Origin: Candidatus Omnitrophota bacterium
Lineage (GTDB): Bacteria > Omnitrophota > Gorgyraeia > Tantalellales > Tantalellaceae
Length of the DNA: 64,000 bases
Reading direction: 5' to 3'
Assembly (NCBI GenBank): GCA_028715965.1
Contig: JAQUQS010000001.1
Coordinates: 97,332-161,331, forward strand
Below are positions 45,200 to 63,347 of this stretch, piece after piece (positions within the stretch are counted from its first letter, which is position 1; each line of letters begins with the position of its first letter). Below the pieces are notes generated by a model. The model saw only the letters and a list, made by a program, of their open reading frames with translations. It was not told the origin of the DNA and did no database searches. The position numbers and the translations under genes are program-made.

Positions 45200-46405
45200 T
45201 TATCCTAATACCTTCTTGAACTCCTGAGTAAGCGCCGGTAATACCTTGAAAAGGTCTCCCACTATACCATAAGTAGCTACGCCGAATATAGGCGCCTCGG
45301 GATCCTTATTAATAGCTACGATCACGTCCGATGACTTCATCCCGATAAGGTGCTGTATCTGGCCGCTTATACCACAAGCGATATATAGTTTCGGGCATAC
45401 GGTCTTACCGGTCTGCCCGACCTGGTGCGAGTACGGGATCCATCCGGCATCGACCGCCGACCTCGATGCCCCCACCGCGGCGTTAAGCCCCAGCGCCAGT
45501 TCCCTGATGATCTCGAAATTCTCTTTTGAGCCCACACCTCGCCCCCCGGAGACAATTATATCCGCTTCCGCTATATTTATGGTCGATTCTATCTCCTCGA
45601 CGATATCGATAAGCTTTGTCCTTGAAGCGTATGTATCCTCATCAAAGGATTCGCGTATTATTTCGCCCTTCCTGGAACTATCAGCTTCGGCCTCTTTCAT
45701 GACCTTATGTCTTACGGTGGACATCTGCGGCCTGGAATTGGGCGTGATTATGGTAGCCATGATATTACCACCAAAAGCCGGCCTTGTCTGGAGAAGCAGT
45801 TTTTCGTCCGGATCTATATCGAGCCCCGTACAATCCGCGGTAAGCCCGGCCCTTATGTCCACAGCTACGCGTGATATCAGGCTCCTGCCTATGGTGGTAG
45901 CCCCGCAAAGCACTATTTCCGGTTTATATTGCGACACCAGCTTGATAAGGACCTTGGTATAAGGGTCGTCCTGATATACCCTCAATTTGGGGGAATCCAC
46001 GAGATATACTTTATCGGCGCCTTTTTCTATGAGTTCCCTGCACACATCTTCCACTCCGTCGCCCAAAAGCACCGCGCAAAGCTTAACCCCGAGCTTATCC
46101 GCGAGTTCCCTGCCTTTTCCCAGTAGCTCGAACGCCACGGACTGCACTTTTCCCTTTTTCTGCTCGGCGAAGACCCATACATCCTTATACATGGAAAAAT
46201 CTTTTTTAGCGGCGGTGTCTTTTTTCTTTATATCGATGGCATCGAACTTACACACCTCTACGCAGGCCCCGCATAACGTACACTTGGTAAGGTCAATGAC
46301 CGCTTTCTTGTTCTCTACGGTCATGGCACCGAAAGGGCATTCCTTTACGCACAGCTTACATCCAATGCATTTATCGTTGATCTTTATCGGCAGTTCTCCG
46401 CTCAT
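45200..46405 (-). CDS. etfA: Electron transfer flavoprotein alpha subunit with an N-terminal 2x[4Fe-4S] ferredoxin domain.
   Basis: The 401-aa ORF has two CxxCxxCxxxCP motifs (CIGCKLCVKECP, CTLCGACVEVC) and then an EtfA FAD-binding domain (..ACGISGQIQHL..). Confidence 0.9.
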   Translation of the reverse strand: MSGELPIKINDKCIGCKLCVKECPFGAMTVENKKAVIDLTKCTLCGACVEVCKFDAIDIKKKDTAAKKDFSMYKDVWVFAEQKKGKVQSVAFELLGKGRELADKLGVKLCAVLLGDGVEDVCRELIEKGADKVYLVDSPKLRVYQDDPYTKVLIKLVSQYKPEIVLCGATTIGRSLISRVAVDIRAGLTADCTGLDIDPDEKLLLQTRPAFGGNIMATIITPNSRPQMSTVRHKVMKEAEADSSRKGEIIRESFDEDTYASRTKLIDIVEEIESTINIAEADIIVSGGRGVGSKENFEIIRELALGLNAAVGASRSAVDAGWIPYSHQVGQTGKTVCPKLYIACGISGQIQHLIGMKSSDVIVAINKDPEAPIFGVATYGIVGDLFKVLPALTQEFKKVLG

Positions 46406-46424
46406 ATGCGCTCCATCTCCCGTT

Positions 46425-47216
46425 CTATCCGCCTATCACAACATCCTTGATAAGTCCGGCCAATTCTATGGCCGCGTCCTTTTCCTCGCCGCCTATGATC
46501 TGACCGCCTCCCCTTGGGGGCGGAGAGAACACCTTCACGACCCTGGTGGGGGACCCATCAAGGCCTATGTTCTCCGGCTCGCAGGCGACATCTTCCGCCG
46601 TCCAGACAACTATCTCGGCCTTCTTTGCCTTCATCTTACCCTTGAGGGACGGAAGCCTGGGTTCGTTTATCTCTTTTACCACCGTGAATAATACCGGTAT
46701 AGGCGTTTCGACTATATCATAACCCTCTTCGGTCATACGTTCGACCACAGCGGAGGTCTTGTCCAGTTTTTCGATCTTTTTCACATATGTTACCTGCGGA
46801 ATCCCCAGATGCATGGATATACCGGGACCTACTTGGGCGGTATCCCCGTCGGAGGCCTGTTTCCCGCAGAATATGATACCGAAATCTCCCACCTTCTTTA
46901 TGGCCTGTGAGATAGTATAGCTGGTGGCCCAGGTATCACTGCCGGCGAACTTCCTGTCGGAAAGCAGTATAGCGCTGTCACAACCCATGGATATGGCTTC
47001 CCGCAGGGCTTGGTCCGCCTGGGGCGGCCCCATGCAGATAACAACGACCTCGGAATCCCCCAGCTTCTCCTTGACCCTTATGGCTTCTTCAATGGCGTAC
47101 ATATCAAAGGGATTTATGACCGCTGCCACGCCTTCACGCTTGAGCGTGTTCGTTACCGGGTCTATCTTCACGTCCGTCGAGTCCGGAACCTGTTTTATAA
47201 GGACCAATATCTTCAT
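46425..47216 (-). CDS. etfB: Electron transfer flavoprotein beta subunit.
   Basis: The 263-aa ORF begins MKILVLIKQVPD and has the EtfB family signature. Confidence 0.9.
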   Translation of the reverse strand: MKILVLIKQVPDSTDVKIDPVTNTLKREGVAAVINPFDMYAIEEAIRVKEKLGDSEVVVICMGPPQADQALREAISMGCDSAILLSDRKFAGSDTWATSYTISQAIKKVGDFGIIFCGKQASDGDTAQVGPGISMHLGIPQVTYVKKIEKLDKTSAVVERMTEEGYDIVETPIPVLFTVVKEINEPRLPSLKGKMKAKKAEIVVWTAEDVACEPENIGLDGSPTRVVKVFSPPPRGGGQIIGGEEKDAAIELAGLIKDVVIGG

Positions 47217-47235
47217 TGTTGCTCTTCCTTCCGGC

Positions 47236-48396
47236 TTATTTCTTCTTGCCCAGGCTCTCTTTTATGAGAGCCGATGCTATCACGCTTCTCTGTATCTGGT
47301 TGGTGCCCTCATATATCTGCGTGATCTTCGCATCCCTCATGAGTTTCTCTACCGGGTATTCTTTCATATATCCATATCCGCCGAAGATCTGTACAGCATC
47401 CACGGTGACCTTCATCGCCGTATCGGACGCGAACGTCTTGCTCATGGCCGATATCTTGGCCACATCCTTGGCTCCGGAGTCTATCATGCGAGCGGCCGAG
47501 TATATAAGCGCCCTGGAAGCCTCTACCTGTATGGCCATATCGGCGAGCATGAACTGTATCCCCTGGAAAGAGGATATGGCGCTCCCGAACTGCTTTCTCT
47601 CGTGGGCGTATTTGACCGACTCATCCAAAGCCCTCTGGGCTATGCCGACGGCCTGCGCGGCCACACCCGGACGCGAATGATCGAACGTCTTCATGGCCAC
47701 TATGAACCCAAGGCCTTCCCTGCCCAGCAGGTTCTCTTTAGGCACCTTAACGTCCTGGAATATCACCTCGCGCGTTGCCGATCCCCTGATACCAAGCTTA
47801 TCTTCCTTCTTGCCAAAGCTCAGGCCCGGAGTACCTTTTTCGACTATAAAGGCGCTTGCGCCACGCGCGCCTTTGGATCTGTCCGTCATGGCGATAACAG
47901 TGTATATCTCGGCTTCACCACCGTTGGTTATCCACTGTTTGGTCCCGTTCAATATATAATGGTCCCCGTCCTTCACGGCCGTGGTCTTTATGCTTCCGGC
48001 ATCCGATCCGGCTTCCGCTTCCGTTATACAGAAAGCGGCAAGGGTCTTCCCCGCGGCTATATTAGGCAGGTATTTCGCTTTCTGGTCATCGTTACCATAA
48101 AGCAATATAGGAAAAGTCCCCAGACCGGTAGCGGCGAAAGCCAGGGCAATACCTCCGCATCCCCAGGAAAGTTCCTCCGCGGCGATGGCCATTTCCAGGA
48201 CCCCGCCGCCCATACCACCATATTCTTCGGGTATATACACGCCATAGATATCGGATTCGGCCATGACCTTGACTATATCCCATGGGAACTCACCGGTCTC
48301 GTCATGATGAGCCGCAACTGGTTTTATTTTCTCTTCGGCGATCTGGTGGCATAGATCCCTTATCATCTGCTGTTCTTCGGTCAATAAGTAATCCAT
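47236..48396 (-). CDS. Short-chain acyl-CoA dehydrogenase (butyryl-CoA dehydrogenase-like).
   Basis: The 386-aa ORF has ACAD N/M/C domains (..CITEAEAGSDAGS.., ..QIFGGYGY..). Confidence 0.9.
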   Translation of the reverse strand: MDYLLTEEQQMIRDLCHQIAEEKIKPVAAHHDETGEFPWDIVKVMAESDIYGVYIPEEYGGMGGGVLEMAIAAEELSWGCGGIALAFAATGLGTFPILLYGNDDQKAKYLPNIAAGKTLAAFCITEAEAGSDAGSIKTTAVKDGDHYILNGTKQWITNGGEAEIYTVIAMTDRSKGARGASAFIVEKGTPGLSFGKKEDKLGIRGSATREVIFQDVKVPKENLLGREGLGFIVAMKTFDHSRPGVAAQAVGIAQRALDESVKYAHERKQFGSAISSFQGIQFMLADMAIQVEASRALIYSAARMIDSGAKDVAKISAMSKTFASDTAMKVTVDAVQIFGGYGYMKEYPVEKLMRDAKITQIYEGTNQIQRSVIASALIKESLGKKK

Positions 48397-48490
48397 ATCT
48401 TCTCCTTACGTTTTCGTGACCCGTAAAACATCACGGACTTTACCGGGCCAAAGAATTTGAGTTTCAAGATATAATTGATCTAAACCGGGT

Positions 48491-49753
48491 TCATCCTTCG
48501 AACTTCTTAACGACCAGGCTCACATTATGCCCGCCAAAACCGAGAGAATTACTTAGCGCTACCTTAACATCGGCTTCTCTGGCGGTATTCGGGACATAAT
48601 CAAGGTCGCAATCAGGGTCAGGGTATTCATAGTTGATTGTGGGAGGCAGAACTCTTTCCTCTATGGCTTTAGCGCATGCGATCAGCTCTATCGCGCCTGT
48701 AGCGCCTAACAGGTGCCCGGTGACGCCTTTAGTAGAACTTACCGCCATTTTGTAAGCATGGTCACCAAAAACCTTTTTTATGGCAGCCGTTTCCATCTTA
48801 TCATTGAGCTGCGTGGAGGTACCATGCGCGTTTATGTAGTCTACTGCTTCCACGTTAAGTCCGGCATCCTCTACGGCGGCCTTCATGCATCTTATAGCGC
48901 CGTCCCCTTCGGGATCAGGAGCTGTCATATGATACGCGTCCCCGCTCATACCGTATCCCACGACCTCACAATAGATATGGGCCCCTCTTTTCTTGGCGTG
49001 CTCCAGCTCCTCAAGTACCACTATAGCCGCGCCTTCGCCCATTATGAACCCGTCCCTTTCCCTGTCGAACGGGCGTGAAGCATGTTCCGGGTCATCGTTC
49101 CTGGTGGTCAGCGCCTTGAGGGCGCAAAAACCCCCGAATCCCATTCTCGTTATAGCCGCTTCGGACCCTCCGGCCACCATTATATCCGCCTCATCCCTCT
49201 GTATGATCTTAAAAGCGTCCCCTATTGAGTGGCTGGCGGTAGCGCAAGCTGTGACCGCCGCGGAGTTCGGGCCTTTGAACCCCAGCTCTATGGAGACCAG
49301 GCCGGACCCCATATTAACGATGAGCATGGGGATAAGGAACGGTGACATCCTGGATGCCGCTACCGTCTCGTTCTCCGACATTATGTATTTTGAATGCTCT
49401 TTCTCTATGGTATGGAGCCCGCCTATACCTGACCCGATATATACACCGGCCCGCTCGGTATTGATCTTGGAGACCTCTATCCCGCTGTCGTCAACAGCCA
49501 TCTTGGCGGCGGCTATCGCGAACTTAACGAACGGATCCAGCCTTTTTTCCTGCTTGGGGCTTATGAACAAGGTCGGGTCGAAGCCTTTGACCTCTGCGGC
49601 TACCTGGGAATTAAACGGAGTAGGATCGAAGGCGGTAAGACGGGCTACACCCGTCTTACCGTTAACCATCGCATACCACGCATCTTTGACATTGTTCCCT
49701 ACCGGGGTCACTGCGCCGGTCCCTGTAAGGACAACTCTTCTTTTATGGGACAT
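48491..49753 (-). CDS. fabF: Beta-ketoacyl-ACP synthase II.
   Basis: The 420-aa ORF has the KAS II active-site Cys region (..[10 protein letters not shown]..) and His/His motifs. Confidence 0.9.
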
Positions 49754-49776
49754 AATCGGATAATCTTATTTTTAGA

Positions 49777-50016
49777 TTACTTGGCTGCTTTTTCTTCGAT
49801 ATAAGTGATAGCCTCTCCGACCGTCGTGAGCTTTTCGGCGTCTTCGTCCGGTATTTCAGCCCCGAACTCTTCCTCAAGCGCCATAACAAGCTCAACAGTA
49901 TCCAGAGAATCGGCACCAAGATCGTCTATGAACTTCGCATCTTCTCTGACCTCTTCGATCTTTACACCAAGCTGTTCAGCCACGATCGCTTTGACCTTTT
50001 CAGCTATCTCCGACAT
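49777..50016 (-). CDS. acpP: Acyl carrier protein.
   Basis: The 79-aa ORF has [21 protein letters not shown], the phosphopantetheine attachment Ser. Confidence 0.9.
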
Positions 50017-50110
50017 TGTTCCTCCTTTTACGCGTTTTTAGTTGCTACAGTTAGATACCTATTAATGGCTTACTGTCATTCTGGCAAGCCGTAGAGCTTT
50101 CGGCCGTGGC

Positions 50111-50854
50111 CTACATCACCATTCCGCCGTCAACTTTTATTACCTGACCCGTTATATAAGAAGACCCTTCACCGACCAGGAAAAGCGCCAACTTTGCCAC
50201 ATCTGAGGTATCCCCCATCCTTCCGAGGGGGATAAGCCCCAAAAGCTTCTCTCTCGCCTCCGCGGACAGCTTATCGGTCATATCGGTCTGTATGAACCCG
50301 GGAGCTATGGCGTTAACATTGATATTTCGGGATCCCATTTCCTTGGCTACCGTCTTGGTCAGGGCTATAAGCCCTCCCTTGCTGGCAGCATAATTAGCCT
50401 GGCCGGCGTTCCCCATGACCCCTATTATGGAAGCCATGTTCACTATCCTGCCGCCGCGTTGCTTCATCATAGGACGGGTCACTGCTTTTATACAGTTGAA
50501 AGCGCCCTTAAGGTTCACGTCAAGTACTGAATCCCATTCCTGTTCCGACATTCTAAGGATAAGATTATCCCTGGTAATGCCGGCATTGTTGACAAGTATA
50601 TCTAATCTTTCAAAATTGTCAAGGGTTTTCTCCACGAACCCGGTCACTTCTTCGAGCGAAGTAACGTTGACCTTGGCTGTCAGGACCTTCCTGCCTGTCG
50701 CATCTTCTATTTCCTTTTTGGTAGCGGCCAGGAATTCCTCGTTCACATCACATATGGCAAGGTCCGACCCTTCCCTGGCGAACAGGAAAGCTATCTCTTT
50801 CCCTATCCCCCTGGCCGCACCCGTTACCATGGATACCTTATTCTCGAGTTTCAT
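50111..50854 (-). CDS. fabG: 3-oxoacyl-ACP reductase.
   Basis: SDR signatures are present (TGAARGIGKEIA; YAASKGG). The start was moved to MKLENKV at 50854, which sits 4 nt downstream of a GGGGGT RBS and downstream of the promoter -10. The ORF track extends to 50890. Confidence 0.9.
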   Translation of the reverse strand: MKLENKVSMVTGAARGIGKEIAFLFAREGSDLAICDVNEEFLAATKKEIEDATGRKVLTAKVNVTSLEEVTGFVEKTLDNFERLDILVNNAGITRDNLILRMSEQEWDSVLDVNLKGAFNCIKAVTRPMMKQRGGRIVNMASIIGVMGNAGQANYAASKGGLIALTKTVAKEMGSRNINVNAIAPGFIQTDMTDKLSAEAREKLLGLIPLGRMGDTSDVAKLALFLVGEGSSYITGQVIKVDGGMVM

Positions 50855-50880
50855 CTTACCCCCTGTTTTTTTCGAACTAA

Positions 50881-50908
50881 ATTGTAACAACTATAAATGT
50901 TTTGTCAA
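50881..50908 (-). promoter_or_regulatory. Sigma70-like promoter for fabG-acpP-fabF.
   Basis: The minus strand reads TTGACA-N16-TACAAT. The fabG ATG at 50854 follows about 25 nt downstream of the -10, with a GGGGGT RBS. Confidence 0.5.
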
Positions 50909-55832: not shown

Positions 55833-58800
55833 TTACGCGGACCGGAGGAACATCAGGAGTTTCTGCTGGTCCTCTTTCCACGTGTTCACTACCGGGGTCA
55901 TGATCGGCAACGATATGCTGCCATCAAGGATCTTCTCGATAACATCCGGATCGTTCTCGTCGATGATGTCCGGGATGGATATCATCATCTTAAGATACCG
56001 GATGATGTTAGACCTCACTTCCTGCCTTACCTCTGATGGAGCCTCCGCCGCGGCCGCTTGTCTTTCGGCTATCCTCTTATAGTTCAATAATCCCTTGCCA
56101 AGCATCACATGGTTCACGAGGTCTATCATCCCGCCGGGCGGCAGGCTGTCCTCGCTGACCACGGCAAAGCTTTTCTCCGGGTCCGGCATAAGTTCCCTGA
56201 GCACTTTAAGCGCCATCTCCCTCATGTCACGGGACACGAACACTATGGCTTTCGGCGTCTTGTCCTTATAATGATCGTCGCCCATTTCACCTATTACCCT
56301 GGAAAAGACATCCCGGAACTCGGCTTCGGCATCGGCCGCTCCCGTGTTATATCCGCGCAGGATAGTATCCATCCGGTATTCTGAGCTTTTTCGTAATAGC
56401 TGTTTGAGTTCCGACTCAAGAGACACCTTGTCCGACATTGCCCCTACATCAGAAGGTCCGGGCGTTATTATCCAATCCGCCGTGTCGGGGACCATGTCAC
56501 CCATCATTACAGCGGCTGCCGTCATCTTCTTCTCCGGGGACGCCACAATATGATCTTCTTCCGCTTCTTCAAGAGCAAGCCCGGAATCTTCGCCTATTGC
56601 CACGGGCGCCGTCACCGGTCCCCGCGCGGGTATAAGGCTATCCATATCAAGCTCATCCGCTTCAAGGGGCGGATATTCCCTTTCAAGGAGAAGACCCCTG
56701 TAATCCGCGTCCATGAACGAGTTGAATATGGCCGCCACATTGCCGATGTGCCTCTTCAATTCCGCGGTCAGTATCTCTTCAGGATCAGCCAGCTCTCCCA
56801 TACCCATAAGTACGGCTACATCGGTCCATATCTCCTTTTTAAGCATATCCTGTCTGTCCGCGTCCATAAGACCGCTATCATCCCATACTATGTTCACGGC
56901 CGTCCTCAAGGCGACAAGGAATTTCCTGGCCTGTGAAAGAGCCTCGACCTCCGTCTCACCAAGCACCTGTTCCCCTCGTGTCAGGGTCATGGCATTCTCC
57001 CTGAAAGCGTCCGGGCGAGCCCAGTCCCACGTGGGCATACCCGCTACAGTACGCCCCATCCATGTTATAAGGTCTATCGTCCTGAGCCCACCACGCCCTT
57101 TCTTGGTATGGTAATTGCCGGGGTTAATGTATGTGATGGACCTCATCGGGTCAGCCATATCCATTTCATCCTTGCCCTCTACGATCGCCTTGAAATCCTG
57201 CCGGAGCACATATCTCGACATCAAATGTTTGAACGTCTCGGCGTCCCTTATCGCCTCCTCGAACCCTTTACGGATATCTTCAACTGATACCGGCCCGGAA
57301 ATATATCTCCAATCCATTATGGACCTCATACCCGCGATGTCCCTTTCCTCGAAGTAATCCAGATAATCCTTCTGGAATTCATCCATGGTAAGCGCTTTTA
57401 TATTGTGGTCCGCGCCCACTTCCGGATACGCGGGATAATCCAGAGTGACACCGGTTATCTCTCCGGCCAACATCCCGAACTCCGCGGCTTGCCTGCGAAG
57501 CGTAACGATGTCGTCCCGGTCCTTGATAAGGATGAACAGATCAAGGTCCGTCCCATAAGGCGCGGCTCGGCGCGCGTAACTTCCCATACCTATAAGGGTA
57601 ACTTTGTCGGCTATACCCATGAATTCCGCGAGCCTGATTATCGTATCGTCTATGAGGTCCGAATATGCCGAACCAAAGTCGAATTCCTTTCCGCTGAGGG
57701 CCGCGTCACGGAACTGGCCTTTAATGCCCTGTAGTTCCTCTCGGAATTTGTCCCTGGCATATTCCACATATTCTTCCAGGGTCGCGAAAACCTCACCAGC
57801 ATCCTCCTCTTGTTCCTCCCTGTATATTGTCGACCGCATGGCCGCGGCGGCCTGTTCGGGAGTAATACCGGTAAGTGAGGTGAATTTCGCCCGTTCCCAC
57901 TCAGTGTATGCCGCGTTCGCCCCTTCTTTATACGGAGCGGCGGCGTATTCAAACCCCATCATCATCCTCAAGCCTTCCGGAAAACTGTGCCTGTCGGGAT
58001 CGCGGTTATCGAAGACCGTGAGCATCCTCCATGGTGACCCGACGTATATTTCATCCAGCCACGGGTCCGAACTGAGATCCTCCCTCTCTCGCTCATCAAG
58101 TTCAGGCAGAATATCATTTATCGTGACCATGTTCTCCGTAAGGAGGTTTCCCGCGTTGTCCCTCAATAGGTTCATTTTCACGTCCTCATCCATATCCATC
58201 CCCAGAAAAATGTTCAACGCGAACGTGGCGACATATGGGATCGCCAATATCACCTCAATGTCTGGGCGGGCCGCGTCTATCATCGCGATCATCTCGTCCG
58301 CGTCCCATCCGGAGAAGGACGAGTCGTCAAAGATCACGACTTTCCCTCCATCAGGGATCCCGTCAAGTCTCGCGAGCCATCCAGAACGCGCGCCGTTCTC
58401 GTCATGGTTCGAGTATATTTCCACCGGTTCCCCGATATCGGCCCTTAAGGTTTCCCTCGCCATCTGGTATACATACATTTTCGACTTGTTGGACGTTTTC
58501 CCCAGTATCACGCCCCAGGCCCCCTTATCATAACCTTCCAGTTCCCGATTTATCGCTTCGGCCATGCTCCTTACTTTGTCCCGGAACTCCTCGAACGTTA
58601 TATATCTCAGATTGTCCAGGAGCGCGTTCCTGATCTCCTCCAGTTTGGAGACATGCTGCGGGAATTTTGCCTTATATTCCTCGAACTTGTCCGACACGTT
58701 GCGCCTAAGCGCGTCAAAGTCCCCTATGAGGCGCCTTTCCGGGACCTCGAATTCAGACCCGAGCGCTTCCAGGACTTCCGCATCTTCGGCGAAAGGAAGG

Positions 58801-61800
58801 GGCTCTTCGGGGTTATTCCGGCTCCACACCCAAAGGTTGCCTTTTTCCCCTTTAGCGGAATCCTCCACGATATTCAACTGGTCCGTGACCCCTACTCCCC
58901 ATAGTTCCAGGTCACTTTTCGCGAATACCCGGTTATCCATAAGAAGAGTCTGGTTAAATCCCGCCACGGGCTTGATCACTATTGTTCCGTCGGGCCTGAG
59001 TTTGTTAAGCAAACCCTCATTCTGCAACATGTTCACGAGATCGTTCGTTATGTCGGGTCCGGCGGGATTCATAAGAAGTATGCTGTCCAGGGAACCGTCG
59101 GGCATGGCCCTCAGGATATCCATATCCGCCCTGAGTATGGCCAAACGCGGATCGTTCCGCCTTTGCGCCCTGAGCCGACCCCTCTCCCAGTCCCTTGCCC
59201 ATCCCCCGTATAGAGGCACCTTGTTCTCCGTATCGTATATATCCGTGGCTATAACGGCCATATCCGGGTTCGCCCTTACCAGCTGGTCCGCGAACGTGGC
59301 CGTGCCACATCCTATTTCCAGCACGACCTTATTTATACCGCTCGCCGCGTCCGATCTTTTTCTAAGGATATCCAACGCTTTTCTCGCCTCGCCGGATGGG
59401 TTCCCCCGGGTCAAAAGATAATCCATTACCCCCGGCTCCGTCGTCCCTGTCCCCGAGCGCTCTCCCGTCCCGGGGAACATGGAATCCTTAAGACCCGCGA
59501 GGTCCGACCAATTGCCAAGCGTAGCGTGTAATGCCGTCATCACCCCGGCCATGAAGGTTATGTATGCCCCTGCCGGGGACGCGACCAAAAGGGGTGATAT
59601 CATCATTAACCCCGCGCCATAAATAAGCTCTGCTATCGGCCCCGACGCATAAATGACAGCTCCTTTGGCCCCTTGTTCAAAGTTCATGTGCCTCACCGCG
59701 AACGTGGGGAATATCCTCTTCCCGCGAGCGGTTTCCCAGCTCATCACGAATTTCGGCTTTGCCCCGAAGATCTTTCCCGCGATGAAATGCCCCACTTCGT
59801 GTATCGCTATAGCCGGGATGAAGAAAAGCGTCAAGATCAATATATTATTCAAGAGACCCGGTATCCCGAAATCGGTCCTGACACCCTCATCCGGCATAGC
59901 GGGCATATTAAGCAACAGCATCTCGACCGCCTGCGCTGATGTCCTTTGCAGCTCATAGTTGCTCCACCATCTTATTATGAGCGCCTGCCTGGCGGTAAGC
60001 CTGGAAGTATCATCCCGGTATTGGCCGAAAGCCTCCCTGACCGCGTCCATATCGTCCGGCGCGAAAAACGGGTCCTCGTTCCTGATCAGGTCGAAATAGT
60101 ACGCGGTCCTAGCTCTATAATGCTCAGCGAGGTCTTTCACTCCCTTAGCCGCAAGCTCACGGTCCTCCGGAGATACCGGTTCTCCGATACCTGCACCCCT
60201 CAGCTTGTCGAGCGCGGCAAGGGCCAGTGCCCTTATGACAAAATCCCTTTTCTCCTTCACCATGGTATCGTCCCTTGCCAGGTCCAGCATATCGGACACG
60301 GACACGGGCTTACTGTCATATACCATGATCTTTTCCGCGTACCCGGACGGCTGCTCTTCATACATCTCATATCTCATCTTAAGGATCCGGCCGTCATCAC
60401 CCCGTTTGTACGAGTTCAGTATACCTTCCACGACCGGGGTATTCCGCAGGACCCAGCCCTCCTCGCCAGGGGAAAGCCATAGCCAGTAATCCGCATCGTT
60501 CTCAAAACCGCTTATCTTCACTTCTTCGTCAAGGGACATACCGCTCTCTCTGTAATAGAAATGGAGCGCTTCATGTATAAGTCCGGAACGCAACATGTCA
60601 TCCGAAGCGAAATTTGATACCGGCAGGGCAATGAACCCTTTTTCCGTGTCCGCGTGCGCGTAATTCTTATCGGCCGAGAACCTGAGCTCTTTCGTTCTCA
60701 GAACGACTATCACTCCCTCTATCATGCGTCTCTGATCAGGGGTGAGCGCTTCCTTGATACTTTCGTAATGTGACGCTATGGCCCCGGCCTCGGCCTTCAT
60801 TCTTTCTGTGTAGCCGATATCGGCACCGGACACTCCTGAGAAAGACATGCTCGTGGATTGTCGTTGGAGCCCGGCCGTCCCGTCCCCTTCACCGGGCACA
60901 GGTGCCTTGCCAGCAGGTGACAGGGCATACAGCAAAAGGCTGATAAGGCCCATCCCAATGGTAAGAGAGACGCACAGACCGGGTTTCGTCCGGGAAAGGG
61001 CAAAAAGACGGTCCAGCTTTCCTCTGTAATCCACTCCCCTGATCGCGGATACAGCCCTTGATGACAACAGTTTAAGCGTAAAATGTCTAAGTACGTGATA
61101 TCCCAAAAGTGTTCCGACGACCACCATCGCGTGCACCGGAGTGAACCCGCTTATTAGTATCACGCTCACCACAATGAACGCCATAACGGCCTTTTTGTGA
61201 GCGTCGGAGACACGCGCGGGCATGTTCTCCTGCCCGGTCCCCCCGGTAGTACCGGCTTCCGTTCCAGCATCGCCGCTCACGCCCGGGCTCGCGGACGCAT
61301 CGACAAGCTCAGCCTGCGGTCCCAACGGCGGACCGGGGAGGGCTTCACGCCTTTCTTTTCGCGCTTCCGCTACCAGTTCGCTCACCGGTATGCTCACGGG
61401 TCTTCCGATCTCCTTACCATTCCTCATCAAGGCACAATTCAACGTTCCCGACGTGCTGTCGTAAACCACACTCAGGTTCCGGGCGTCTTCCCCTATCGCG
61501 TTTATCACGTTCTTGATATTTCCGTTCTCCCTGCCAAGTTCGGCCAGCACACGCACGGCGGCGCGGAACGCATCTATCTCTTCCTGTCCGCACACGGCTT
61601 CGGCAAGTATCGGGTTGAGCTTGGACGCTACGGCCATCATGGATGCCTTGGCTATCACCGAGCTCAGCATTCTCTGGAGATCCGTGGTCTGGCCGGCTAA
61701 TATCTCATAATACGGGTCCTTGAAATCATCTTTCACGGTGAACTTGGGGAGTATGGATACGTACGATATACCCTTTTTCCGGAAAAGCTCACAGATATTC

Positions 61801-63347
61801 TCCGTATGGAACCCTCCTGTCATGAGCATAGCCGCCTCCGCGGGGCCGCGCACTTCTTCGAACCGTATGTTGTCAAGGAACGCCTCGTCACGCTTGAACG
61901 AATACGCGTAGAACGCGGAAATATCTCCCAGATACTTGTTCAGGTTGGCACAGTCATCCGATATCTCAAGTGTTATACCGTGCTCCTTCGACGCGGGCAG
62001 AAGAAAATCCGTATAGGCTTTTACCGAAAAGGTCTCCCTGTTACCCCGATAATAATAATAGTCCGTCTTTATCAGCTTTATATCGAACATGTTCCGCATT
62101 ATGGACAGATTACGTGAAAGCCTGTTCAATGTCCTTTGTTCGGCGCTGGTATACAATGGCTCCCTGACGGCATCCTCATATTTGTCGAGCTCCTCCATCA
62201 CCCGCGTCCTGTCGACGGATTCATAAACCGTCACATATCCGATATATTTGGAAAGTTCCGGGAACCTGCCCGGGTCGAGGCCTACCTCCCTCACCTTATC
62301 GAACAGATATCCATAGAACGCCCTGAGCGAAAGTCTTTTTGTCTTGAAAGCCACACTCTTTGACACAAGCTCTCTAGACTCGTTCCTTGAAAGCCGCTCT
62401 TTCAGCTCTTCGACAAGAGCGGTGCGTTCGACATTGGCCCTCTCGAAATCTATATCGTCCTCTTTCTCCAAAGCGGACGAAAGAAGAGAAAGGTTACGGA
62501 ACCCGTTAAGTCCAACTCCTGTTACCCTGCCCTTATCCACCAGGTAACGCAGATATTTGCCAAAGTCCATGTTGCCGGATTTATAAGCCGCGTAGGAAAT
62601 ATCGAGACTGATAAGTTCTTTCGAGAAAAGATATACTTTCAGGTTGTTAACAGCACGGGAAAGCTCGCTTATATATCGGTCCACATCCGCCTTGTACGAC
62701 AAAGAATCCCGGTACACCTCCAGGTTGGCCAGATACAATTCTTTGTTCTCAACCCCCCACAACCGTACCTTGTCCGGGTTATTCGCCGCATAAAATTCCG
62801 CGCCGCTTATATCGCCTTGTTTGACAAAATAATCCGCCACTTCCCTGCGTATTTCCGTACCGGTTATGGACGTAAAGGGCGTAAGATCGTACTCACCCAC
62901 GCCCCCTTCCAGGTTCACGAGCCGCACGCCGTATTCCTTACTGATGTAATCGATGATATCGGCTATCTTATGCTGGGCATAAACGTTACAATGCGCGTCC
63001 TGTATATGGACAACGAACTTATCAGAACTTCCTTTGTAGCCGAATTGTACCTCTCCAAGATGTTCGGGTATGGTTATGGTCGAAGCGTCCAGAAGGGAAT
63101 ACGATATGTTATGCGCGTCATCCGTAGTGATCGCGTAGGGGATCTGCGCGGGCTGCTCGATAGCGGACCATGCATCGGTCAATACATTGGTAACAAAAAA
63201 AGCGACAAGAACGACTGTTCCAGTCACTTTTCGCGCCAACCCGTATTGCCCAAACCATGGTCTGAACATAATGAACCTCATAAGTCTTTTGTTTACACGA
63301 CTTACATTGGGCAAAGGTTTTGCTTTACCCTTTTGACCTTCCTGCAT
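55833..63347 (-). CDS. Giant multidomain membrane protein (2504 aa) of unknown function. It has an N-terminal TM anchor, an unrecognised domain of about 640 aa, a Gly/Pro linker, TM segments, HEALH and M50-like HEVGH metalloprotease motifs, a SAM-methyltransferase motif, a PRTase-like motif and a GlnD/GlnE-like nucleotidyltransferase module.
   Basis: An uninterrupted 7515-nt ORF at about 50% GC cannot arise by chance. The motifs read directly from the translation are: TM helix around aa 42-58; HEALH at aa 925 (nt 60561-60575); LFFIPAIAIHEVGHFIAGKIFG at aa 1183 (59787-59801) inside a hydrophobic stretch; KVVLEIGCGTATF at aa 1340 (59292-59330); GGKVVIFDDSSFSG at aa 1670 (58311-58346); SAYSDLIDD...LIGMGSYARRAAPYGTDLDLFIL at aa 1915-1940 (57531-57599); KKGRGGLRTIDLI (57071-57110). 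Confidence 0.9.
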   Translation of the reverse strand: MQEGQKGKAKPLPNVSRVNKRLMRFIMFRPWFGQYGLARKVTGTVVLVAFFVTNVLTDAWSAIEQPAQIPYAITTDDAHNISYSLLDASTITIPEHLGEVQFGYKGSSDKFVVHIQDAHCNVYAQHKIADIIDYISKEYGVRLVNLEGGVGEYDLTPFTSITGTEIRREVADYFVKQGDISGAEFYAANNPDKVRLWGVENKELYLANLEVYRDSLSYKADVDRYISELSRAVNNLKVYLFSKELISLDISYAAYKSGNMDFGKYLRYLVDKGRVTGVGLNGFRNLSLLSSALEKEDDIDFERANVERTALVEELKERLSRNESRELVSKSVAFKTKRLSLRAFYGYLFDKVREVGLDPGRFPELSKYIGYVTVYESVDRTRVMEELDKYEDAVREPLYTSAEQRTLNRLSRNLSIMRNMFDIKLIKTDYYYYRGNRETFSVKAYTDFLLPASKEHGITLEISDDCANLNKYLGDISAFYAYSFKRDEAFLDNIRFEEVRGPAEAAMLMTGGFHTENICELFRKKGISYVSILPKFTVKDDFKDPYYEILAGQTTDLQRMLSSVIAKASMMAVASKLNPILAEAVCGQEEIDAFRAAVRVLAELGRENGNIKNVINAIGEDARNLSVVYDSTSGTLNCALMRNGKEIGRPVSIPVSELVAEARKERREALPGPPLGPQAELVDASASPGVSGDAGTEAGTTGGTGQENMPARVSDAHKKAVMAFIVVSVILISGFTPVHAMVVVGTLLGYHVLRHFTLKLLSSRAVSAIRGVDYRGKLDRLFALSRTKPGLCVSLTIGMGLISLLLYALSPAGKAPVPGEGDGTAGLQRQSTSMSFSGVSGADIGYTERMKAEAGAIASHYESIKEALTPDQRRMIEGVIVVLRTKELRFSADKNYAHADTEKGFIALPVSNFASDDMLRSGLIHEALHFYYRESGMSLDEEVKISGFENDADYWLWLSPGEEGWVLRNTPVVEGILNSYKRGDDGRILKMRYEMYEEQPSGYAEKIMVYDSKPVSVSDMLDLARDDTMVKEKRDFVIRALALAALDKLRGAGIGEPVSPEDRELAAKGVKDLAEHYRARTAYYFDLIRNEDPFFAPDDMDAVREAFGQYRDDTSRLTARQALIIRWWSNYELQRTSAQAVEMLLLNMPAMPDEGVRTDFGIPGLLNNILILTLFFIPAIAIHEVGHFIAGKIFGAKPKFVMSWETARGKRIFPTFAVRHMNFEQGAKGAVIYASGPIAELIYGAGLMMISPLLVASPAGAYITFMAGVMTALHATLGNWSDLAGLKDSMFPGTGERSGTGTTEPGVMDYLLTRGNPSGEARKALDILRKRSDAASGINKVVLEIGCGTATFADQLVRANPDMAVIATDIYDTENKVPLYGGWARDWERGRLRAQRRNDPRLAILRADMDILRAMPDGSLDSILLMNPAGPDITNDLVNMLQNEGLLNKLRPDGTIVIKPVAGFNQTLLMDNRVFAKSDLELWGVGVTDQLNIVEDSAKGEKGNLWVWSRNNPEEPLPFAEDAEVLEALGSEFEVPERRLIGDFDALRRNVSDKFEEYKAKFPQHVSKLEEIRNALLDNLRYITFEEFRDKVRSMAEAINRELEGYDKGAWGVILGKTSNKSKMYVYQMARETLRADIGEPVEIYSNHDENGARSGWLARLDGIPDGGKVVIFDDSSFSGWDADEMIAMIDAARPDIEVILAIPYVATFALNIFLGMDMDEDVKMNLLRDNAGNLLTENMVTINDILPELDEREREDLSSDPWLDEIYVGSPWRMLTVFDNRDPDRHSFPEGLRMMMGFEYAAAPYKEGANAAYTEWERAKFTSLTGITPEQAAAAMRSTIYREEQEEDAGEVFATLEEYVEYARDKFREELQGIKGQFRDAALSGKEFDFGSAYSDLIDDTIIRLAEFMGIADKVTLIGMGSYARRAAPYGTDLDLFILIKDRDDIVTLRRQAAEFGMLAGEITGVTLDYPAYPEVGADHNIKALTMDEFQKDYLDYFEERDIAGMRSIMDWRYISGPVSVEDIRKGFEEAIRDAETFKHLMSRYVLRQDFKAIVEGKDEMDMADPMRSITYINPGNYHTKKGRGGLRTIDLITWMGRTVAGMPTWDWARPDAFRENAMTLTRGEQVLGETEVEALSQARKFLVALRTAVNIVWDDSGLMDADRQDMLKKEIWTDVAVLMGMGELADPEEILTAELKRHIGNVAAIFNSFMDADYRGLLLEREYPPLEADELDMDSLIPARGPVTAPVAIGEDSGLALEEAEEDHIVASPEKKMTAAAVMMGDMVPDTADWIITPGPSDVGAMSDKVSLESELKQLLRKSSEYRMDTILRGYNTGAADAEAEFRDVFSRVIGEMGDDHYKDKTPKAIVFVSRDMREMALKVLRELMPDPEKSFAVVSEDSLPPGGMIDLVNHVMLGKGLLNYKRIAERQAAAAEAPSEVRQEVRSNIIRYLKMMISIPDIIDENDPDVIEKILDGSISLPIMTPVVNTWKEDQQKLLMFLRSA

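Follow-up and report, generated by a model that had tools for sequence, protein, structure and literature searches.

One reading frame with two HExxH motifs

The window analysed here is a stretch of 64,000 nucleotides of contig JAQUQS010000001.1 from a Candidatus Omnitrophota bacterium. On its minus strand lies a single uninterrupted open reading frame (ORF) of 2504 amino acids, the translation of positions 55833-63347, which contains two copies of the HExxH signature of zinc metalloproteases, HEALH and HEVGH (Table 1). HEALH belongs to a domain of about 310 residues with a zincin-like predicted fold, and HEVGH to a hydrophobic three-helix core with family-level similarity to M50, the family of the site-2 proteases. 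Our interpretation, to which we attach a probability of about 0.6, is that a 900-base region of this frame encodes two different zinc-metalloprotease-type modules side by side, within a mosaic membrane-spanning multi-enzyme protein. Judged from their motifs, both modules look catalytically intact. The frame is identical to a hypothetical protein at NCBI, here P0001, of 2478 residues, the annotated start of which corresponds to Met27 of the longest ORF.

Translation confirms the coordinates given for the two motifs in a preliminary description of the window, as well as their location in one protein, 258 residues apart, and the peptides quoted there (LTLFFIPAIAIHEVGHFIAGKIFG, ASGPIAELIYGAGLMMISPLL, NWSDLAGL and ESGMSLDEEV) are all found in the ORF. 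No third HExxH occurs anywhere in the 2504 residues. Histidine is scarce in the protein (30 residues of 2504) and the number of HExxH motifs expected from composition is 0.028. When the protein was shuffled 20,000 times, at least one HExxH appeared in 3% of shuffles and at least two in 0.035%. The conservation of the motifs, each invariant among its own homologues (see below), is a stronger argument against chance than the shuffles.

The HEVGH core and the M50 family

HEVGH falls in the C-terminal third of a predicted helix whose first 19 residues score 2.16 on the Kyte-Doolittle scale. It is followed by a basic loop rich in Lys and Arg (residues 1192-1222) with a predicted β-hairpin, and then by two more hydrophobic helices, visible in the hydropathy plot at residues 1237-1257 and 1258-1280. 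To this extent the mapping agrees with the preliminary description, which had HEVGH inside a transmembrane (TM) helix with further hydrophobic helices behind it. The second core helix starts with Ser-Gly-Pro, and D1282, in NWSDLAGL at the predicted cytoplasmic end of the third, lies 95 residues past the second His of the motif. The order of HExxH helix, basic hairpin loop, SGP helix and D1282-ending helix matches that of the three-helix M50 core. In RseP, SpoIVFB and MjS2P (PF02163) HExGH likewise occupies the last third of a membrane helix, towards its C-terminus, and is followed by a basic loop with a β-hairpin, a helix that starts with (A/S)GP and a helix bearing an Asp some 90-95 residues beyond the second His. 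For SpoIVFB and MjS2P the distance from the second His to the ligand Asp is about 90 residues. The low-confidence model of the core gives its secondary structure as helix, hairpin, helix and helix.

In searches with profile hidden Markov models (HMMs) PF02163 is the top Pfam match. It scores 16.3 bits with the whole protein (E 0.0063, residues 1175-1278) and 17.1 bits with the isolated core (E 0.0036), in a match to profile positions 4-106, against a curated gathering threshold of 27.2 bits. The M50 assignment of the preliminary description is thus borne out by the position of the motif in a hydrophobic helix and by the ranking of families, but not by the score. The second Pfam match of the isolated core is DUF3267 (PF11667), a ‘putative zincin peptidase’, with 15.2 bits. 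This family and Peptidase_M50B-like (PF13398), which reaches 18.6 bits with the relative P0123 introduced below, consist like the core of compact membrane HExxH proteins of similar size. These scores too are below the respective cut-offs (27.1 and 26); neither family scores better than PF02163, and they would hence offer no closer assignment.

Exhaustive comparison of residues 840-1330 with 1.84 billion representative sequences by phmmer yielded one relative for the core part, the 206-residue P0123 (E 5.5e-4), the genomic context of which was uninformative. The query core, P0123 and a third sequence, P0040, were combined into an alignment and profile, A2, in which the two His and the Glu of HExxH, the Gly and Pro of SGP, and D1282 are invariant. 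D1282, proposed in the preliminary description as a possible third ligand, accordingly stands as a candidate by its invariance in this small alignment, though it lacks the NxxPxxxLDG context. Searched against 177,635 distinct sequences from the PDB at E ≤ 10, A2 retrieved three entries, all of them site-2 proteases: two RseP orthologues and MjS2P (3B4R, E 0.0015), the alignment of which starts ahead of HExxH and extends to the end of the GP helix. With hhalign, A2 was matched to the Pfam-significant M50 domain of P0082 with a probability of 89% (E 2.4e-6). SGP is aligned with the GP of 3B4R and RseP in the former search and with that of P0082 in the latter. Single-sequence phmmer searches of PDB sequences with the segments of both modules gave nothing relevant.

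PF02163 is also the best Pfam family for P0082 (31.2 bits), P0123 (22.3), P0040 (17.1), P0012 (12.4) and P0020 (11.0), among which P0082 alone exceeds the cut-off. The metagenome ORF L005, whose M50 domain is significant at 37.3 bits, has AIHEVGHFIAGK in common with the query, and its ESDGTQLLD (LLPTKSNGFESDGTQLLD) stands where the query has WSDLAGLKD. M50 is essentially the sole family that the HMM and profile searches found for the core. A word-index homology search with A2 returned P0123 alone, and one with residues 840-1330 (window positions 59358-60830) returned nothing, not even the identical P0001, which exhaustive HMMER searching did find. The word index seems to represent the interior of giant proteins poorly, and negatives from it are uninformative there.

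In RseP, TM1 (M1-C33) bears H22 and H26, a re-entrant β-sheet lies between TM1 and TM2, and D402 is in TM3; the three TM helices form the conserved core, N394 clamps the substrate and the hairpin provides a substrate-binding edge strand (PMC9401612). The relative position of HEVGH in its helix is that of H22/H26 in TM1. Taken together, these comparisons make it likely that the core is homologous to the M50 superfamily, as a divergent and minimal member, and proteolytic activity is plausible.

The HEALH domain

Six copies of the HEALH domain are known, all in very large proteins. They include those of the query and of three metagenome proteins, P0018 (36% identity), P0121 and P0122. In a scan of 185,579 species-representative genomes (GTDB) the domain was present at three loci, all in Omnitrophota metagenome-assembled genomes (MAGs), one of which, L002, corresponds to P0122. 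Besides the motifs in Table 1, EKRxF and several further positions are invariant in the four copies that can be aligned in full. The spacing from HExxH to E949 and D953, HExxH-x19-ExxxD, is that of thermolysin. These two residues, with E962/E963 of PGEEGWV as alternatives, are better candidates for the third ligand than the acidic stretch ESGMSLDEEV to which the preliminary description had pointed; the latter is not conserved among the copies of the domain and was rejected.

An AlphaFold model of the domain, made from four sequences, has a predicted local distance difference test score (pLDDT) of 84.4 and a predicted template modelling score (pTM) of 0.79. In its own numbering, a backing helix (31-46) and strands 48-51, 59-61 and 66-69 are followed by the HExxH helix (77-96, with HEALH at 86-90) and by more helices, of which 112-118 and 123-140 bear D953 and E962/E963. 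HExxH is thus found, as in zincins, on an active-site helix behind a β-sheet and a backing helix, and it is conserved in six of six copies. Structure comparison placed the model nearest to small zincins (ArdC, Spartan, Wss1, proabylysin and deuterolysin), weakly, with ERAP1, Spartan, aminopeptidase N, proabylysin and Wss1 mixed in the ranking with unrelated helical proteins at similar Z. The best Foldseek matches were proabylysin (probability 0.92, E 0.45) and projannalysin (0.84), and no Foldseek match was obtained at E ≤ 0.001. The structural evidence is consistent in direction, if weak in strength. The earlier description of HEALH as a soluble gluzincin-type site agrees with its conservation and with these neighbours, but the peptidase HMMs lent it no support, no family having matched the domain. 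We read the domain, on its model and conservation, as a putative new zincin-like family with HExxH intact and an acidic third ligand among the candidates E949, D953, E962 and E963.

Among PDB sequences, a search with the HEALH profile gave a non-significant match to BoNT/F (E 0.17) and otherwise immunoglobulin G (IgG) Fc. The latter match, the top one (HEALHNHYTQKSLSLS, E 0.0011), was rejected as a chance peptide coincidence. It sets window positions 60519-60575 (HEALHFYYRESGMSLDEEV) against the C-terminus of human IgG Fc (MHEALHNHYTQKSLSLS), and warns against relying on HExxH alone.

The domain differs in several respects from the small zincins proabylysin, projannalysin, Wss1, Spartan and ArdC and from the aspzincin deuterolysin. 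It has no sequence-level relationship to them, is about three times larger, with long extra helices and its own invariant PGEEGWV and EKRxF, and is known from just a few proteins, all of them giant. Of the small zincins, Wss1 and Spartan count among the minigluzincins (PMC4559962). A third His, as in these two and in ArdC, is lacking in the HEALH domain. With the M48/M56 peptidases (HtpX, Ste24, BlaR1) it shares HExxH, membrane tethering and an E-x-D-A-D-Y element, which is ENDADY in the query and EHDADY in the M48 cassette of P0018, a protein in which the HEALH domain is followed by that cassette where the query has the M50-like one. Unlike M48, the HEALH domain is missed by PF01435, and its spacing from His to Glu is 20 rather than the approximately 29-35 of the M48 cassettes. 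The specific M48 gluzincin kinship suggested by ENDADY was rejected, hhalign of the domain against five M48 cassettes of related proteins giving a probability of 2.4%.

Topology, protein family and possible roles

The topology proposed here comes from Kyte-Doolittle hydropathy and the positive-inside rule. Hydrophobic segments are found at residues 41-63, 716-753, 791-809, 1164-1190, 1237-1257 and 1258-1280. The first reads as a signal peptide or signal anchor, which would place the N-terminal module outside the cytoplasm. The stretch at 716-753 would then be one pass into the cytoplasm, the loop after it cytoplasmic and 791-809 an in-to-out helix, with the HEALH domain outside. The core helices would run out-in, in-out and out-in, as do TM1-TM3 of RseP. 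This arrangement was chosen because it is the sole one that puts the Lys/Arg-rich loops 758-790 and 1192-1222 and the cassettes of S-adenosylmethionine (SAM) and nucleoside triphosphate (NTP) type in the cytoplasm. A helical hairpin at 716-753 was rejected; it would put both loops and the SAM- and NTP-dependent cassettes outside the cell. In the query, P0121 and P0122 alike, a hydrophobic TM segment directly precedes the HEALH-type domain.

Two side observations concern signals of export. The first 26 codons of the longest ORF (window positions 63270-63347) lie outside the NCBI annotation of P0001; with either start, a basic N-terminus precedes the hydrophobic segment with its AWSA/IEQ end. 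AWSA/IEQ resembles a site for signal peptidase I. In P0121, residues 2727-2750 (...LTSAIILAGCNHD), before the HEALH-type domain, contain a lipobox-like LAGC, and the domain of that protein could acquire a lipid anchor once the chain is processed internally, as would suit a location outside the cytoplasm.

Table 1. Features of the giant ORF, in window positions (aa, amino acid residues of the 2504-residue translation; K/R, Lys or Arg; A2, the alignment of the query core, P0123 and P0040)
Feature	Residues (aa)	Window positions	Strand	Evidence or remarks
Giant ORF	2504 in total	55833..63347	-	Identical to PHH49_00815 (hypothetical, Candidatus Omnitrophica MAG, NCBI)
N-terminal hydrophobic segment VVLVAFFVTNVL, then AWSA/IEQ	41-63	63159..63227	-	Hydropathy; 10 K/R in aa 1-40
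Conserved N-terminal module	~50-650	61398..63200	-	In all 119 other listed relatives; no Pfam family
Hydrophobic stretch, read as one membrane pass, then K/R-rich loop (aa 758-790)	716-753	61089..61202	-	Hydropathy
Predicted TM helix directly upstream of HEALH domain	791-809	60921..60977	-	Hydropathy
Orphan zincin-like HEALH domain (~310 aa), predicted extracytoplasmic	840-1150	59898..60830	-	
HEALH: two putative zinc His and putative catalytic Glu	925-929	60561..60575	-	Middle of model helix 77-96; HExLH in 6/6 copies
E949-N-D-A-D953, ExxxD at +20/+24 from second His	949-953	60489..60503	-	D953 in 6/6 copies; E949 in 4/6 (N in P0122, Q in L003)
PGEEGWV; E962/E963 alternative third-ligand candidates	960-966	60450..60470	-	6/6 copies; starts model helix 123-140
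Minimal M50/site-2-protease-like core: helix, β-hairpin, helix, helix	1161-1291	59475..59867	-	HMM, hydropathy, alignment, model
HEVGH	1183-1187	59787..59801	-	Residues 20-24 of 30-residue predicted helix 1164-1193
S1235-G1236-P1237, start of second core helix	1235-1237	59637..59645	-	Aligns with M50 AGP motif; G and P invariant in A2
D1282 in NWSDLAGL, predicted cytoplasmic end of third core helix; candidate third zinc ligand	1282	59502..59504	-	Invariant in A2
Start of SAM-methyltransferase-like domain (VLEIGCGTATFA)	1332-1374	59226..59354	-	Weak: PF13649 E 0.015; BioC and TrmB models E ~4e-4
GlnD-like nucleotidyltransferase and helical domain	~1861-2211	56715..57767	-	PF08335 37.6 bits (cut-off 21)
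Conserved C-terminal module (~230 aa)	~2270-2504	55836..56540	-	In ~20 listed relatives

The N-terminal module of about 600 residues defines a family of listed relatives 1387-4239 residues long. Most share that module alone with the query and about 20 also share the C-terminal one. Where an organism is given, their source names are Omnitrophica, Omnitrophota or ‘Candidatus Tantalella remota’ (the last name taken as listed). The middles vary from protein to protein, with kinase, UbiB, M48, PEP-utilising, metallophosphatase, HATPase, cNMP-binding, FHA, GT2 and other cassettes, and at least five members carry M50-like membrane cassettes. The family is, as far as its sequences tell, a mosaic that shuffles enzyme cassettes. 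Two metalloprotease-like sites in one protein were called unusual in the preliminary description. The exact combination has no second example in the databases searched; because the family shuffles cassettes, and because P0018 (HEALH domain plus M48 cassette) and P0121 (HEGLH domain plus a second soluble HExxH segment) carry two as well, the pairing seems less unusual than it appears, one outcome of that shuffling.

Among the other cassettes of the query, the methyltransferase-like start would be the first on the cytoplasmic side, and the GlnD-like region is matched weakly by the NCBIfam GlnD models too. Residues 1668-1717 (window positions 58197-58346) match no family HMM in the Pfam scan; VVIFDDSSFSGWD within them resembles the nucleotide-binding motif of type-I phosphoribosyltransferases, and the hydrophobic VILAIPYVATFALNIFLGM that follows has a membrane-helix-like score (2.04, residues 1699-1717), sits within a soluble-looking domain and is probably a buried element of a soluble fold. 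Searches of PDB sequences with the N-terminal module and with the C-terminal 644 residues gave spurious matches only. The neighbouring genes of the window are ordinary housekeeping and metabolic ones (aldo-keto reductase, glycoside hydrolase family GH1, acyl-CoA dehydrogenase and electron-transfer flavoprotein (ETF), β-ketoacyl synthase (KAS), SMC and RecA), and no functional link from them to the giant ORF was found. Window positions 45200-50890 hold a compact minus-strand cluster of two ETF subunits (one with an N-terminal 2x[4Fe-4S] ferredoxin domain), an acyl-CoA dehydrogenase, a β-ketoacyl synthase and a short-chain dehydrogenase/reductase (SDR) family reductase, which suggests a module of butyryl-CoA/ETF type unrelated to the protease modules.

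Several observations weigh against the reading of the locus as two metalloprotease-type modules. The M50 scores of the query core are all under the PF02163 cut-off. Where M50 proteases have the canonical TM3 motif NxxPxxxLDG the core has HATLGNWSDLAGL, with no Pro and with His1274 at the position of the clamping Asn. It consists of three helices only, without a fourth gating helix or the usual PDZ or CBS accessory domains, it is an internal cassette of a multi-enzyme protein rather than a free-standing protease, and its model (pLDDT 53) is too poor to display a His-His-Asp triad. As for the HEALH domain, two of the six copies have Asn or Gln in place of the Glu at +20, the scans of Pfam and NCBIfam families, those of peptidases included, gave no match, and the alignment with M48 cassettes has the low probability given above. 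Lastly, the combination of a HEALH domain with an M50-like core is without an ortholog in the databases searched.

Chance occurrence of one or both motifs, without a metal site, is nevertheless very improbable. HExxH is short and an unrelated IgG Fc peptide heads the PDB matches of the HEALH profile, but two such motifs are rare in shuffles and hardly expected from composition, each is invariant among its homologues, and separate profile evidence ties the HEVGH module to M50. Alternatively, the membrane core is a non-catalytic relic of M50, three helices that only anchor the protein or link its exported half to the cytoplasmic one, with HExxH and Asp kept by descent or for metal-dependent folding. 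It has lost NxxPxxxLDG, with no Asn at -8 from the Asp, is restricted to three helices without gating helix, PDZ or CBS domain, and has one distant relative among 1.84 billion representatives; moreover, the cassettes of P0012 and P0020, at 12.4 and 11.0 bits, look more eroded. All three putative metal ligands, the putative catalytic Glu and GP are intact, however, though expected to be the first to decay in a pseudo-enzyme, and the prediction retains the Lys/Arg-rich hairpin loop, which in RseP supplies the edge strand for substrate binding; we consider a relic unlikely.

It is distinctly unlikely that the HEALH domain is a zincin-like scaffold other than a peptidase, whether another metal-dependent hydrolase, with a substrate such as a lipid or part of the cell wall of a host or prey cell, or a non-enzymatic binding module. 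All six copies retain HExxH, the Glu included, the strands and helices on either side are ordered as in zincin peptidases, and proteases are its nearest neighbours in structure. The lack of a peptidase HMM match and of a Foldseek match at E ≤ 0.001, the variable Glu at +20, the long helices without known counterpart that make up two thirds of the domain, and the published work that ties giant proteins of Omnitrophota to attack on prey cell surfaces would all suit such a scaffold.

If, as we prefer, both modules are metalloproteases, the HEALH module, tethered to a TM helix on its predicted outer side, would bind zinc through H925 and H929, with E926 as catalytic base and E949/D953 or E962/E963 supplying the third ligand, and would act as an exported zincin-like domain on something in the periplasm or at the cell surface. 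In its turn, the M50-like core would have H1183 and H1187 at the cytoplasmic end of helix 1, then the basic re-entrant β-hairpin, SGP helix 2 and, at the cytoplasmic end of helix 3, D1282. If its orientation is that of TM1-TM3 of RseP, the active site would therefore open to the cytoplasm, into which the chain continues with its methyltransferase-like and GlnD-like cassettes, and from that face it would cut membrane-spanning segments. Most likely, the two modules would process either partner proteins or their own giant chain, by proteolysis at the membrane and inside it. A fused ‘site-1 plus site-2’ switch is a bolder idea and something of a long shot: the HEALH zincin would trim an exported segment, of the protein itself or of a partner, before the M50-like core makes a second cut inside the membrane, in a case of regulated intramembrane proteolysis in cis. 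This would release a cytoplasmic array of about 1200 residues (methyltransferase-like, GlnD-like nucleotidyltransferase and C-terminal module) or free the exported N-terminal module.

Very long multi-enzyme membrane proteins of Omnitrophota have been described in two preprints (West-Roberts et al., 2023; Nielsen and Lui, 2026), the 2026 catalogue counting proteins of at least 10,000 residues. The query resembles them in being, by prediction, membrane-anchored and in being tiled with unrelated enzyme domains, methyltransferases and peptidases among them, and comes from the same phylum; those proteins are much longer than its 2504 residues, and its own family is defined by the shared N-terminal module. 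Division of the polyprotein by peptidase domains of C39 or S8 type embedded in it has been proposed in this work, and neither preprint mentions M50 or metalloprotease modules; among the papers searched, none mentions Omnitrophota together with metalloprotease.

Should the modules prove to be inactive relics, they would be one more case of domain shuffling in the family. If both are active, they would show how far a site-2-protease core can be pared down, to three helices with neither NxxPxxxLDG nor accessory domains, and that such a core can be used as an internal cassette. They would also add an orphan zincin-like family with the signature HExLH...D...PGEEGWV, whose copies in named genomes are all from Omnitrophota. 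These bacteria are uncultured and may be predatory or episymbiotic; how their large mosaic membrane proteins are processed is a question that earlier preprints raised for C39 and S8 domains only, and the two modules, if active, would offer a testable route.

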